Notes under the pieces: model-generated
Told to the model about the DNA's origin: nothing
Database searches by the model: none
The model's input: only the letters and a program-made list of their open reading frames with translations
In this document: one piece after another, positions 5,538-8,911 of the stretch
Layout: the number at the start of each line of letters is the position of its first letter
Position numbering within the stretch: the first letter of the stretch is position 1
Source of the DNA: a virus
Strand: one strand, 5' to 3'
IMG/VR virus record: IMGVR_UViG_3300045988_149506
Length of the DNA: 62,842 bases
Made by a program: the position numbers and the translations under genes

Positions 5538-6038
5538 ATGGAACAGAACAACAAACAGACGATGCCATGTTTCGAACTTGGCTACCTTTACGTCTTCAAA
5601 GAAGAAGACGAGGACGGAGAGCTGACAATCATCGGCAAGCTCATCGGCAAGAACGAGAGCGAGGACACGCTGACATTCGGCAACCAGTACGAAATCGAGA
5701 ACGAGAAGTTCGTGACCGACCAAGCCTTCGACCTGCGTATCAGCGTACACGAGGAACTGCGAGAAGCAACAGAGGGCGAAGCCGCCACGTTCCAGGAGGC
5801 TTTCACTCTCTGGAAGAAGAGCAAGAATCAGCCATCATTCAGAACCTTCGATAAGGTTCTTGTGCGTAACAGCGATGAACACAAATGGAGACCAGCAATC
5901 TTCGCACGAACACGTATAGGTGAATCCCCATACAAATACAACGCTTTGCTATTATGCACCGGGCACGTAGGTGACTTTATCCAATGCATCCCATACAAAG
6001 GAAATGAGAAAATGGCATTCACCACAGACCCATTTTAG
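5538..6038 (+). CDS. Hypothetical protein (acidic N-terminal half)
   Basis: 166-aa ORF. The alternative-frame ORFs over the same DNA look like compositional artefacts. Confidence 0.7.
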   Translation: MEQNNKQTMPCFELGYLYVFKEEDEDGELTIIGKLIGKNESEDTLTFGNQYEIENEKFVTDQAFDLRISVHEELREATEGEAATFQEAFTLWKKSKNQPSFRTFDKVLVRNSDEHKWRPAIFARTRIGESPYKYNALLLCTGHVGDFIQCIPYKGNEKMAFTTDPF

Positions 6039-6056
6039 GTAACAAGATTAAGCAAT

Positions 6057-7457
6057 ATGAATCACGCTAGTTTATTCAGCGGAATCGGTGGCGCAGAGAT
6101 CGCTGCATCCATGATGGGATGGAAGAATCTCTTCCATTGCGAGATACAGGAGTTCCCTCGCAAGGTGCTCGACTACTGGTTTCCAAATTCAGAAAGTTAT
6201 GAAGACATTACCAAAACAGACTTCACAAAGTGGCACGGCAAGGTCGATGTTCTCACAGGAGGATTCCCCTGCCAACCTTTCTCCCTCGCTGGCAGAAGAA
6301 AGGGAGCGGACGATAACCGCTACCTCTGGCCACAAATGCTTCGAGCGATACGGCAGATACACCCCACTTGGGTCGTTGGTGAAAACGTTGCTGGCATCAA
6401 GACGATGGTGGAGTCCTGCCAAGTCACTCAGATGGGACGCACAGACTATCTTTTCGAAGAGAATCACCTATACCGAGAGGAAAGCCGATTCACCCTCGAC
6501 AAAATCTGTGCAGACCTCGAAGCCGAAGGATATTCCGTCCAACCGATTGTTATTCCAGCTTGTGCCATCGGAGCACCGCACAGAAGAGACCGAGTTTGGA
6601 TTATTGCCCACCGTTCAGACCCAAGGGCTGAAACAGTGCAACAAGAAAGGCAAGACGGAATTTGTTCCGCTAGACCTTCTCCCCACACCCAATGCGATGG
6701 ACATAGCCCACAAGGACATGGAAATCAACGAGAGAGGGCGAAGAAATCCAAAGAAGGGCAAGACCGACCACAGCCTGGGTCTAGAAGACATGGCAGTGGC
6801 ACAACTCCTTCCTACGCCCACGGCACTCGACAAAGGAGGAGGAAGAATAAACAAGAGCCTTTCACCGAATGCAGCAGAACGCCCAACCTTGGCACTCGCC
6901 GCTCGAAAAGGCTTGCTTCCCACTCCTTGCAGCATAGAAGCCACGAAGTTCACCAAGACCATCAATCCCAATTCCCAGATGGGGCAAGGACTAACAACCT
7001 TGGCAGTCAATGGTCTTCTTCCCACTCCTACCGCAATGGAGGTAAAGCACTCCAAGCGAGTAAAGGGCTTGAAAGAACAGGGCGCAAAAGGGATGTACAG
7101 CCGAAAGAACGGAGCACTTCGCCCGAATGGACTGACCGACTTTCTGGATTTCCATTATCTCCTCACTCCAAGTGCAACAGATGGTCTCAGAAGTACAATG
7201 ACAATGGATTCTTTGAAGAGCCACAACAAGGAGAATGCCAACCTGGCGGAGCAGATAGCCCACAAAGTAGGTGGCGGAACTTCCCAACTCAATCCCCTGT
7301 TTGTAGAGGAAATGATGGGATTCCCTTTGATGTGGACAGCCTTACCATTTCTTTCCCAAAGTGGCGACAAGAATCCATAAAGGCTTACGGCAATGCCTGG
7401 GTGCCACAAGTGGCTTACGAGATATTCCGAGCCATCGAGGCAGAAGAAAACAAATAA
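6057..7457 (+). CDS. DNA (cytosine-5)-methyltransferase, long ORF. The middle third is low-complexity in this frame.
   Basis: In this frame: motif I FSGIGG, IV GFPCQPFS, VI GENV, VIII APHRRDRVWIIA and X GNAWVPQVAYEIF. See the finding on the overlapping frame. Confidence 0.8.
   Translation: MNHASLFSGIGGAEIAASMMGWKNLFHCEIQEFPRKVLDYWFPNSESYEDITKTDFTKWHGKVDVLTGGFPCQPFSLAGRRKGADDNRYLWPQMLRAIRQIHPTWVVGENVAGIKTMVESCQVTQMGRTDYLFEENHLYREESRFTLDKICADLEAEGYSVQPIVIPACAIGAPHRRDRVWIIAHRSDPRAETVQQERQDGICSARPSPHTQCDGHSPQGHGNQRERAKKSKEGQDRPQPGSRRHGSGTTPSYAHGTRQRRRKNKQEPFTECSRTPNLGTRRSKRLASHSLQHRSHEVHQDHQSQFPDGARTNNLGSQWSSSHSYRNGGKALQASKGLERTGRKRDVQPKERSTSPEWTDRLSGFPLSPHSKCNRWSQKYNDNGFFEEPQQGECQPGGADSPQSRWRNFPTQSPVCRGNDGIPFDVDSLTISFPKWRQESIKAYGNAWVPQVAYEIFRAIEAEENK
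6199..7380 (+). CDS. Overlapping +1-frame ORF with LLPTPxAxD repeats and a motif-IX-like LNPLFVEEMMGFPLMWT
   Basis: 393-aa ORF entirely inside 6057-7457. It has five LLPT(P)/LLTP repeats (starting 6601, 6676, 6805, 6913, 7015, and 7159 as LLTP) and globular-looking composition. It stops 9 nt before motif X of the other frame. Confidence 0.45.
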   Translation: MKTLPKQTSQSGTARSMFSQEDSPANLSPSLAEERERTITATSGHKCFERYGRYTPLGSLVKTLLASRRWWSPAKSLRWDAQTIFSKRITYTERKADSPSTKSVQTSKPKDIPSNRLLFQLVPSEHRTEETEFGLLPTVQTQGLKQCNKKGKTEFVPLDLLPTPNAMDIAHKDMEINERGRRNPKKGKTDHSLGLEDMAVAQLLPTPTALDKGGGRINKSLSPNAAERPTLALAARKGLLPTPCSIEATKFTKTINPNSQMGQGLTTLAVNGLLPTPTAMEVKHSKRVKGLKEQGAKGMYSRKNGALRPNGLTDFLDFHYLLTPSATDGLRSTMTMDSLKSHNKENANLAEQIAHKVGGGTSQLNPLFVEEMMGFPLMWTALPFLSQSGDKNP

Positions 7458-7501
7458 ATGATAGAAATCGTAAATTCTACATTCCAAATAAAGAAGAATA
7501 A

Positions 7502-8911
7502 ATGAAAACAGATGGCTACATATTTACTCCAGAGCTGTTGCAGTGGCGTTACTTCCATCGTCCTGTGGTCGTTCAGGTGCTCATCCATGTGCTCCTCTCC
7601 TCCGCTCACAACGAGGCTTCCGCTGCCACCCTCTCCTATCGTGATTTGGCTCTACAGCTCCATACCACGGTCAAGACCATCCGTGTCGCCATCGATGTGC
7701 TCATAGCCGAGAAAATCATCACCAAGTGCTCTGCTCCAAGAGCCTCAACCAAACTCTATGTTAACAGTTCTCACCCCCTATCCCACTGCATCATACCGTG
7801 GCAAAGAGACCAAGGGTCACAGGTTACGGCACACTTCGGGGCACAGATTGGGGCACAATCTAGGGCACAGATTTCAAACTCACAACAAGCTGATAATCAA
7901 GGTTGCAAGGTGTATTACCAAGATGAGCAGGGCACAGATTGGGGCGCAGTTATGGGCACGGATGGGGCACAGCAAAGGGCGCAGCAAAAACAAGGGGCAC
8001 AGCCAAGGGCACAATCTAGGGCACAGATTTCACACTTCGAAACCCCTTTAAATAAAGGTGATTCCGAAGATTTGAGCAAAGTCAAGGGCACAGATGAGGA
8101 CATTGCCAAGGGCACACTTGCGAGAAAAGGGAAGAAAGAAACGAAAGAAACAAAAGAAAGCCTTTCCCCCGAACCCCCTATTAAAGAAAAGAAAGAAAGA
8201 AAAGAAAGAAGGCAAAAGAGAGCACCCACCCAAACACAAAAAAAAGAAAAAGAAAAAAAGTCGGTGGATGCTGAAACTCAGTTCTCCGAAGTGTTAAGGC
8301 TCTTCAACCGCCTCTTCCTGGGCACGCAGGTAAAGCCAATCTCGAAGATGACTCCCGACCGCAAGAAGCTAGTCGCCAAGTTTATCTCAGACTACTCCTT
8401 CGAGGATATTGAGCCGATGCTTCGCAAGGCTCTCAACTCAGACCTGCTCTCAGGGCGCAAGGATGGTGGCTGCTATATCTCCTTCAACTGGCTTTTCAAT
8501 CCAAAGAACTACGAGCCTCTGATGGAAGGAACGTTCGACAACCCATCAGTTGAAGCCTCAGCCAGAAAGAAGCCTCAGCCTTCAAGTTCTAAACCATCTT
8601 CTCCTCCACAGCCTCAACACGAGGAAACCAACGAGGAAATTGAAGCTCGTCTCAAAAGGAAGGAAGAACGCAAGAAGGAATTGGAGAAAGAACAGGCAGA
8701 AGCCTTACGGCAGAAATATGTAGGCTGGATAGAAGCTGCCAAGAAGAATCCGGATGGTTCCATGGCACAGATGGTGAAAGATGCCTACAAGAATGGCACT
8801 TTAGCTAAACTGGGCATCGACTGGACACCACCTGTGGAAGAGGAAACGAAAAACCTCCTCGACTTGGACGATAAGACACAAAACTATCTCCAGTCTCTCC
8901 TCAGCGACTAA
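7502..8911 (+). CDS. Replication initiation / replisome-organiser-like protein
   Basis: Winged-helix-like N-terminus (LSYRDLALQLHTTVKTIRVAIDVLIAEKII), central GAQ-repeat and K/E-rich linker, and a DnaD/phage-replisome-organiser-like C-terminal block (FNRLFLGTQVKPISKMTPDRKKLV...YISFNWLFNPKNYE). Confidence 0.55.
   Translation: MKTDGYIFTPELLQWRYFHRPVVVQVLIHVLLSSAHNEASAATLSYRDLALQLHTTVKTIRVAIDVLIAEKIITKCSAPRASTKLYVNSSHPLSHCIIPWQRDQGSQVTAHFGAQIGAQSRAQISNSQQADNQGCKVYYQDEQGTDWGAVMGTDGAQQRAQQKQGAQPRAQSRAQISHFETPLNKGDSEDLSKVKGTDEDIAKGTLARKGKKETKETKESLSPEPPIKEKKERKERRQKRAPTQTQKKEKEKKSVDAETQFSEVLRLFNRLFLGTQVKPISKMTPDRKKLVAKFISDYSFEDIEPMLRKALNSDLLSGRKDGGCYISFNWLFNPKNYEPLMEGTFDNPSVEASARKKPQPSSSKPSSPPQPQHEETNEEIEARLKRKEERKKELEKEQAEALRQKYVGWIEAAKKNPDGSMAQMVKDAYKNGTLAKLGIDWTPPVEEETKNLLDLDDKTQNYLQSLLSD
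7813..8120 (+). repeat. Iteron-like array of about 13 GGGCAC(A/G) repeats inside the initiator gene (candidate origin)
   Basis: Copies at about 7839, 7851, 7863, 7930, 7942, 7954, 7964, 7977, 7993, 8006, 8018, 8086 and 8109, mostly 10-13 nt apart. A purine-rich tract follows at 8120-8265. Confidence 0.45.

Follow-up and report, generated by a model that had tools for sequence, protein, structure and literature searches.

How do the conserved motifs of one DNA methyltransferase come to be divided between two overlapping reading frames that both stay open? This question is raised by a locus at positions 6057–7457 of IMG/VR virus record IMGVR_UViG_3300045988_149506, a stretch of 62,842 nucleotides that we refer to as the window. 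The locus holds a long open reading frame (ORF) with the motifs of a cytosine-5 (C5) DNA methyltransferase, frame A, and wholly inside it a second long ORF, frame B. The original prediction, made from the letters alone, had offered three explanations: genuine dual coding, programmed frameshifting that yields several isoforms, or a methyltransferase with a disordered linker plus a separate frame B protein. From the comparisons described here, we consider it likely that the locus is a fully nested, same-strand gene pair encoding a two-subunit (split) phage C5 DNA methyltransferase, the chains of which would be translated independently. The first and third of the three explanations prove to be the same thing at this locus, and the comparative data support both.

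Re-deriving the ORFs returned exactly the coordinates, lengths and +1 relation first proposed. The features of the locus are as follows.

6057–7457, plus strand: frame A ORF (alpha), 466 amino acids, with the C5-methyltransferase core motifs I–VIII, a stop-free spacer, a pre-X element and motif X.
6199–7380, plus strand: frame B ORF (beta), 393 amino acids, +1 relative to A and fully nested in it, with an N-domain, an array of LLPTP modules and a motif-IX-like block.
6057–6198, plus strand: R1, frame A only; holds motif I, with synonymous-codon identity at the baseline of 0.48.
6199–6201, plus strand: ATG at which frame B starts; its AT comes from the frame A Tyr48 codon TAT and its G from the codon that follows.
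6199–6614, plus strand: R2, read as dual-coding; motifs IV, VI and VIII of A over the N-terminal domain of B (B residues 1–138).
6615–7268, plus strand: R3, module array of B and spacer of A; A residues 187–404 are low-complexity, unconserved and stop-free.
7269–7380, plus strand: R4, read as a second dual-coding stretch; pre-X element of A over the motif-IX-like block and tail of B.
7381–7457, plus strand: R5, frame A only; motif X and a C-terminal helix, with synonymous identity again at the baseline of 0.48.
6075–6092, plus strand: motif I, FSGIGG, frame A.
6261–6284, plus strand: motif IV, GFPCQPFS, frame A.
6381–6389, plus strand: motif VI, ENV, frame A.
6573–6608, plus strand: motif VIII, APHRRDRVWIIA, frame A.
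7272–7337, plus strand: pre-X element, WRNFPTQSPVCRGNDGIPFDVD, frame A, overlapping LNPLFVEEMMGFPLMWT of B.
7389–7412, plus strand: motif X, GNAWVPQV, frame A.
7288–7338, plus strand: motif-IX-like block, LNPLFVEEMMGFPLMWT, frame B.
Starts at 6601, 6676, 6805, 6913, 7015 and 7159, plus strand: six LLPTP-type repeats of frame B, five LLPT and one LLTP.
7323–7329, plus strand: C_CCT_TTG, a canonical heptamer of the X_XXY_YYZ form within the 'GFPL' of frame B; slipping back by one base at this point would link motif IX of B with motif X of A.

The five motifs attributed to frame A are all found there at the expected positions: I (FxGxG), IV (PCQ, with the catalytic cysteine), VI, VIII (RxR) and X (GNA). 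Between VIII and X, chain A lacks a conserved target-recognition domain (TRD) and a motif IX. Residues 187–404 have the low-complexity composition that had been described, with R, S, Q, G, P and H making up 57% and hydrophobic residues 11%, against 32% and 33% in the rest of A. Frame B starts about 20 codons 5′ of motif IV, and its stop codon leaves a gap of 8 nt to motif X, giving a same-strand overlap of 1182 nt; upstream of its ATG, within R1, the +1 frame is interrupted by a stop at 6112–6114. The repeat array reported in B is present, but it comprises six units rather than five, the sixth being of the LLTP type.

Is the openness of frame A a product of selection, or could it follow from the codon usage of frame B? 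Across the 219 frame B codons of 6613–7269, frame A has no stop, while 11.2 are expected from shuffles of codon order and 10.3 from synonymous shuffles; zero stops were reached in 0 of 20,000 shuffles of either kind, and codon usage does not explain the openness. The third frame, over the same stretch, has 14 stops against 11.7–13.5 expected. An earlier hand count of stop avoidance stands up to recounting: within 6613–7341, frame B has 42 T-ending codons, 28.8% of its codons start with AA, AG or GA, and not one T-ending codon is followed by such a codon, where 12.1 junctions are expected. The shuffles and the comparative data below agree with the view that selection, and not two accidental indels, has held frame A open.

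The same arrangement is widespread among relatives. We examined 80 IMG/VR loci encoding relatives of B (36–95% identical), of which ∼74 carry the nested pair, with A open across all of B and motifs I, IV, VI, VIII and X in A; the third frame at these nested loci has 10–34 stops. Among prophage loci from Bacteroidota genomes the arrangement is kept in 65 of 80, and the remainder look decayed. Relatives of frame B are numerous, a word-indexed search giving 2692 matches and an exhaustive one 3655 representatives of 50%-identity clusters at E ≤ 1e-3, with most alignments starting at query residue 1. Of isolated phages the closest are BS-TP4 and BKO1-TP3 of Bacteroides, in which both frames are open and nested as in the window, at a frame B identity to the window of 40–45% and with nucleotide similarity that is barely detectable. 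Further afield, gp56 of Paenibacillus phage Jacopo and its relatives contains a nested +1 gp57, both being annotated as DNA methyltransferases, and tblastn with Jacopo gp57 finds matches under the cytosine-methyltransferase genes of Salmonella phage SEN4, Lactobacillus phage Lc-Nu, Gordonia phage Gudmit and Pseudomonas phage PMG1, each lying +1 to an A-type gene that is open. In PMG1 only the B frame is annotated, as 'Mte8-like'. The nested pair therefore spans phages of Bacteroidota, Firmicutes, Proteobacteria and Actinobacteria, and in ∼170 loci we never found a B-type ORF apart from an A-type gene. What homologues share is the same two nested frames, not one frame with all motifs.

To describe selection in the two frames, we used 52 non-redundant loci, codon-aligned in each frame, with stops summed over 51 loci. 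Synonymous-codon identity was calculated among pairs sharing the same amino acid, and the shuffles of A synonymous codons forbade +1 stops. Where A is the only frame (6057–6197 and 7380–7454) its synonymous identity is 0.48. It rises to 0.65 in 6198–6614 (per-column Mann–Whitney p = 7e-8 against the 0.48 baseline) and to 0.78 in 7269–7379 (p = 9e-10 by the same test). In B, the N-terminal part has a synonymous identity of 0.80 and the C-terminal part one of 0.67, and 6613–7269 is at the baseline, 0.46. The amino-acid sequence read in the +1 frame is also better conserved than the coding of A requires: its identity is 0.548 in 6204–6614 and 0.642 in 7269–7376, against 0.347 and 0.403, respectively, after stop-free synonymous shuffling of A, while in two control segments that lack the B ORF shuffling lowers it only from 0.38 to 0.33 and from 0.34 to 0.31. 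The middle segment behaves differently, with an amino-acid identity of 0.52 in B and 0.32 in A. Stops are absent from frame B in the first dual segment (0 observed, 123 expected) and from frame A in the middle segment (0 observed, 306 expected). These alignments indicate that 6199–6614 and 7269–7380 are dual-coding, with both proteins constrained at the amino-acid level, and that 6615–7268 encodes B, frame A there being constrained only to stay open. The last point follows from the baseline synonymous identity of B in the spacer region, from which it appears that the A spacer constrains nothing except stops.

The start of frame B is also marked. The tyrosine codon that supplies the first bases of the B ATG is TAT in 49 of 51 loci, compared with 41% TAT at other frame A tyrosine codons, and the first ATG of B falls at this column in 37 of 52 loci. 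In Jacopo, GGGAGGTG, which resembles a Shine–Dalgarno (SD) site, lies ∼10 nt 5′ of the B ATG, and SD-like sites precede the homologous starts in SEN4 (GAGGAA) and PMG1 (GAGGAT), whose hosts use such sites. We infer from these sequence features that B is translated, and from its own ATG.

Family assignments give each frame a methyltransferase label. Frame A matches PF00145 (E = 1.1e-41, 143.8 bits, cut-off 22), TIGR00675 (E = 9.7e-33, 114.2 bits, cut-off 100.65) and, as a hidden Markov model (HMM) match, phrog_363 (E = 2.5e-69). Frame B has no match among Pfam and NCBIfam models; its HMM match is to phrog_1008 (E = 8.8e-26), to which Jacopo gp57 (6e-72) and PMG1_00057 (5.9e-46) also belong by their matches. 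The PHROG database keeps phrog_363 and phrog_1008 as two separate, unrelated families, each labelled 'DNA methyltransferase', whereas here they are two frames of one locus. In the literature searched, we found no paper that places phrog_1008 members inside phrog_363-type genes in the +1 frame, no description of the nested arrangement in phage methyltransferases, and nothing relevant on 'Mte8'. In public records of relatives, one finds A annotated alone, B alone, or the two together, without comment. The window itself appears to be a complete contig of the Joint Genome Institute (JGI); the JGI annotation calls frame B as a 'hypothetical protein' and we found no JGI record of frame A; the exact frame A protein is recorded only from Logan/ENA.

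What, then, might the two chains make together? The original prediction held that a canonical order of motifs from I to X is recovered by reading A, then B, then A, and the DNA is indeed collinear with PF00145 and M.HhaI in that reading. A chimera of A1–185, B139–386 and A435–466 aligns to PF00145 end to end (profile positions 1–323 of 324) and is collinear with M.HhaI, including GKTRKLHPRECARVMGYP...QFGNS, with E = 1.8e-11 for the N-terminal part, which is frame A; motif X in R5 pairs with QFGNSVV in M.HhaI. When B is matched locally to M.HhaI and Dcm, the best match in each case is at their motif IX.

We therefore favour the following model, in which each step is conditional. Alpha, from frame A, would supply the S-adenosylmethionine-binding, catalytic large domain with motifs I–VIII, followed by a 218-residue spacer and then by the pre-X element and motif X. 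No particular sequence would be required of the spacer, which need only remain stop-free, so that motif X stays covalently attached to the core. Beta, from frame B, would consist of the 138-residue N-domain overprinted on motifs IV–VIII, six LLPTP-type modules and the motif-IX-like block, with the module array occupying the place of the target-recognition (variable) region. Alpha and beta would come together as a single enzyme, which would methylate the DNA of the phage and so guard it from restriction by the host. By analogy with known enzymes, the modules may act as recognition domains and the array may be multispecific. A docking role for the N-domain of B, which AlphaFold2 predicts as two helices and a long hairpin (predicted local distance difference test, pLDDT, of 70–79), is our guess.

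Several points weigh against the two-subunit enzyme. Both chains and their association are predicted from sequence comparison, and a recognition role for the modules draws on analogy. The loci used for the statistics were chosen for carrying both ORFs, and pairwise comparisons among them are not phylogenetically independent. The chimera scores no better against Pfam (138.8 bits) than does A alone (143.8 bits). The match of B to the motif IX of M.HhaI is not significant (domain score 1.5 bits), and when the B profile was compared with E. coli Dcm by hhalign the sole match was the Dcm motif IX, at E = 0.19 and a probability of 0.3%. Given these non-significant local matches and the lack of any gain in chimera score, we regard the motif-IX-like block as a well-placed resemblance and not as proven homology: its position at the canonical spacing from X is as predicted, but its similarity scores fall short. 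Structure prediction is of little further help. AlphaFold2 of B, from a 62-sequence alignment, gave a weak model (mean pLDDT 58, predicted template modelling score 0.32, module region ∼40) in which only the N-domain (residues 29–130) and the C-terminus are moderately confident; Foldseek of this model against the PDB returned nothing below E = 1, and hmmsearch of the B profile against PDB sequences gave no match. For A, a model from 31 near-identical sequences reached a pLDDT of 29.6, so that disorder of the spacer is suggested by its composition and non-conservation only.

There are three alternatives to be weighed against the split enzyme. The first is that the two proteins have independent functions, A being a methyltransferase that works by itself, with little or no sequence specificity and a disordered insert, and B an overprinted protein of another kind, for example a regulator, a DNA-binding protein or an anti-defence factor. 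In keeping with this, every motif of the large catalytic domain is present in A, no solved structure or Pfam family is significantly similar to B, and the N-domain of B has no known counterpart in methyltransferases. Natural variants of the locus speak against it. In two relatives, L085 (P0232) and L171 (P0487), frame A stops 5–20 codons past motif VIII; frame B starts in the +1 frame 5′ of motif IV, runs through 7–14 LLPTP units and then the MMGFP block, and carries the pre-X element and motif X in its own frame after motif IX. Two more such B chains are P0467 and P0473. Since A lacks motif X in these loci, it is incomplete without B and the two chains must complement each other, so that B is unlikely to serve an unrelated purpose. 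Gudmit gp58 has the last two LLPTP units, the IX-like block and motif X in one frame with motifs I–VIII, so there the modules belong to a methyltransferase polypeptide. The only local matches of B to canonical enzymes are at motif IX, canonically spaced from X, and B always accompanies A in the loci surveyed. Thus, we think it improbable that the two proteins act separately. The variants also bear on the spacer of the split enzyme: the stop-free run of 218 codons is found only where motif X is in the frame of A, which argues that the spacer tethers X to the core.

The second alternative is programmed recoding, by which a +1 shift past motif VIII and a −1 shift before motif X, for instance at the C_CCT_TTG of 7323–7329, would give a single I-to-X chain or several isoforms. 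The collinearity of the A-to-B-to-A reading with canonical enzymes is what recoding would produce, the −1 heptamer of frame B is also found at the equivalent site of 29 of 52 relatives, and a few database proteins (P0137, P0236 and P0262) are in-frame A-to-B or B-to-A fusions. However, recoding requires neither that B be open and constrained over 138 codons upstream, nor a conserved B ATG, nor that A stay open for 218 codons downstream, all of which are observed. Of the 52 loci, 20 lack the C_CCT_TTR heptamer yet retain the architecture, BS-TP4 and Jacopo among them; there is no conserved +1 signal (stop or rare codon) at the A-to-B junction; and the end point of B differs between lineages (the window, Gudmit and L085). 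Because the slippery site is not conserved, a +1 signal is lacking and the ORF extensions, the N-terminus of B among them, go unexplained, we reject frameshifting as a general mechanism and consider it very unlikely to account for this locus, in departure from the option left standing by the original prediction. The heptamer is probably a by-product of two conserved peptides, and low-level slippage may occur in the window's own lineage.

The third alternative, a pseudogene, a sequencing artefact of two compensating indels or chance openness from codon usage, we give almost no credence. Frameshifts or stops do occur in a few relatives from the databases (L009, L013, L035 and L036), and some prophage copies are decayed. 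A pseudogene or an artefact is nevertheless ruled out by conservation, since hundreds of assemblies made independently, and phages isolated from four phyla, share the same two frames with amino-acid-level constraint on both; chance openness is ruled out by the shuffles, none of which reached zero stops.

The module array varies in a manner compatible with the nested arrangement. The number of LLPTP units among relatives ranges from ∼1 to 14. In P0020, P0028 and P0085, which are 82–87% identical to the window in B, whole LLPTP-flanked units are deleted or replaced (window 6676–7182), giving proteins of 357, 358, 393 and 410 amino acids. These changes are multiples of three bases, and therefore both frames stay open.

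Other irregularities were seen among the relatives. The A homologue of L003 (MT835926.1) has an intein-like insert at ∼921–1560 that ends ...NGIVVHN and is followed by CQPFS, placing it directly before the catalytic cysteine of motif IV; its B-frame ORF starts inside the end of the insert. L083 (2341–3957) has an in-frame stop in A between motifs VI and VIII; its pre-X element and motif X are separated by ∼190 inserted residues that look like an HNH endonuclease, and its frame B ends early, just past MMGFP. Poly-G tracts (G7–G9) lie between motifs I and IV in L035 (∼2495–2505), L036, L116, L026–L029, L090, L091 and L094, and the window has none there. A one-base offset in L035, L036 and L116 makes the motif I segment of A run into frame B; in L036 this offset is located in an adjacent A-run, not in the G-run. 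Fusions of motif I into B are also seen in protein clusters P0150, P0178, P0218 and P0219. The offsets in L035, L036 and L116 could be phase variation or homopolymer sequencing error.

In the window, the locus belongs to the replication module of a Bacteroides-type phage, with replication-initiator-like and VRR-NUC-like genes downstream. Among the ORFs examined, none adjoining the locus is a restriction gene, which fits an orphan, anti-restriction methyltransferase, and we take this to be a plausible role of the enzyme. The next ORF downstream (7502–8911, 469 amino acids) looks like a replication initiator or a DnaD-like loader, with repeats of the GAQ(S/P)RAQ type that are of low complexity and a K/E-rich stretch, and several ORFs of 60–100 amino acids overlap it in other frames. 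The G+C content of 6001–8000 is 0.50, compared with 0.36–0.47 in flanking 2-kb windows up to 14 kb, the higher value being where the dual-coding gene lies.

In phages and bacteria, few long genes overlap on the same strand, and such cases are often contested. What distinguishes this one is the size of the overlap (1182 nt), the presence of a second selected domain overprinted on catalytic motifs IV–VIII, and its breadth over four phyla. As a large and deeply conserved overlap that natural variants split into three regimes, it offers a clean natural benchmark for methods of detecting dual coding, and it is an example of selection for the continuity of an ORF without selection for its sequence. 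It is also a warning for annotation, in that gene callers report just one of the two genes on many contigs and only frame B was called here. The principle of a nested two-chain C5-methyltransferase is already known from M.EcoHK31I; what is probably new is a split architecture in which a nested subunit of its own would bear the recognition modules. Should specificity be set by the module array, engineering might draw on the family for modular, split methyltransferases, a use to which M.EcoHK31I has already been put.

Beyond this locus we advance a wider proposal, to which we give somewhat less than even credence. It is that the phrog_1008/phrog_363 pairs represent one ancient, cross-phylum class of phage methyltransferases built on a fully nested overlap of >1 kb, in which ∼140 codons of the core (IV–VIII) would also encode a selected +1 domain of unknown fold, an open spacer of ∼220 codons would be 'sequence-free', and a swappable cassette of recognition modules would complete a two-subunit, multispecific anti-restriction enzyme. 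Its specificity would evolve by gain and loss of units without breaking either frame, and some lineages may add poly-G phase shifts or −1 slippage at C_CCU_UUG.

How does such an enzyme compare with known systems? In described architecture the nearest are M.EcoHK31I and M.AquI. M.EcoHK31I, of E. coli, recognises YGGCCR. According to the accounts given of it in PMC2836561 and PMC3404938, its beta, which has motif IX, is encoded within alpha in a different frame, alpha has motifs I–VIII as well as X, and activity requires both chains. The likeness to our locus is that the beta ORF lies wholly inside the alpha ORF in another frame, with motifs I–VIII and X on alpha. The two differ in that the alpha of M.EcoHK31I carries a predicted TRD and its beta is small, whereas here the variable region of alpha is an unconserved, stop-free spacer and beta, at 393 amino acids, has a 138-residue domain overprinted on the catalytic core as well as the whole module array. 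M.AquI of Agmenellum quadruplicatum (CYCGRG), as outlined in PMC3404938, consists of two chains split in the variable region, alpha with motifs I–VIII and beta with the distal variable region and motifs IX–X. L085 and L171 share this partition, with motif X on beta, while in the window motif X stays on alpha; and in all variants here beta starts well inside alpha in the +1 frame, not near the end of alpha as in M.AquI. Finally, the multispecific C5-methyltransferases of Bacillus temperate phages such as SPR and phi3T are orphan enzymes with several tandem TRDs in the variable region (PMC12707154). The six tandem LLPTP-type units of frame B recall these tandem TRDs by their arrangement, with the difference that the Bacillus phage enzymes are single polypeptides encoded in one frame.

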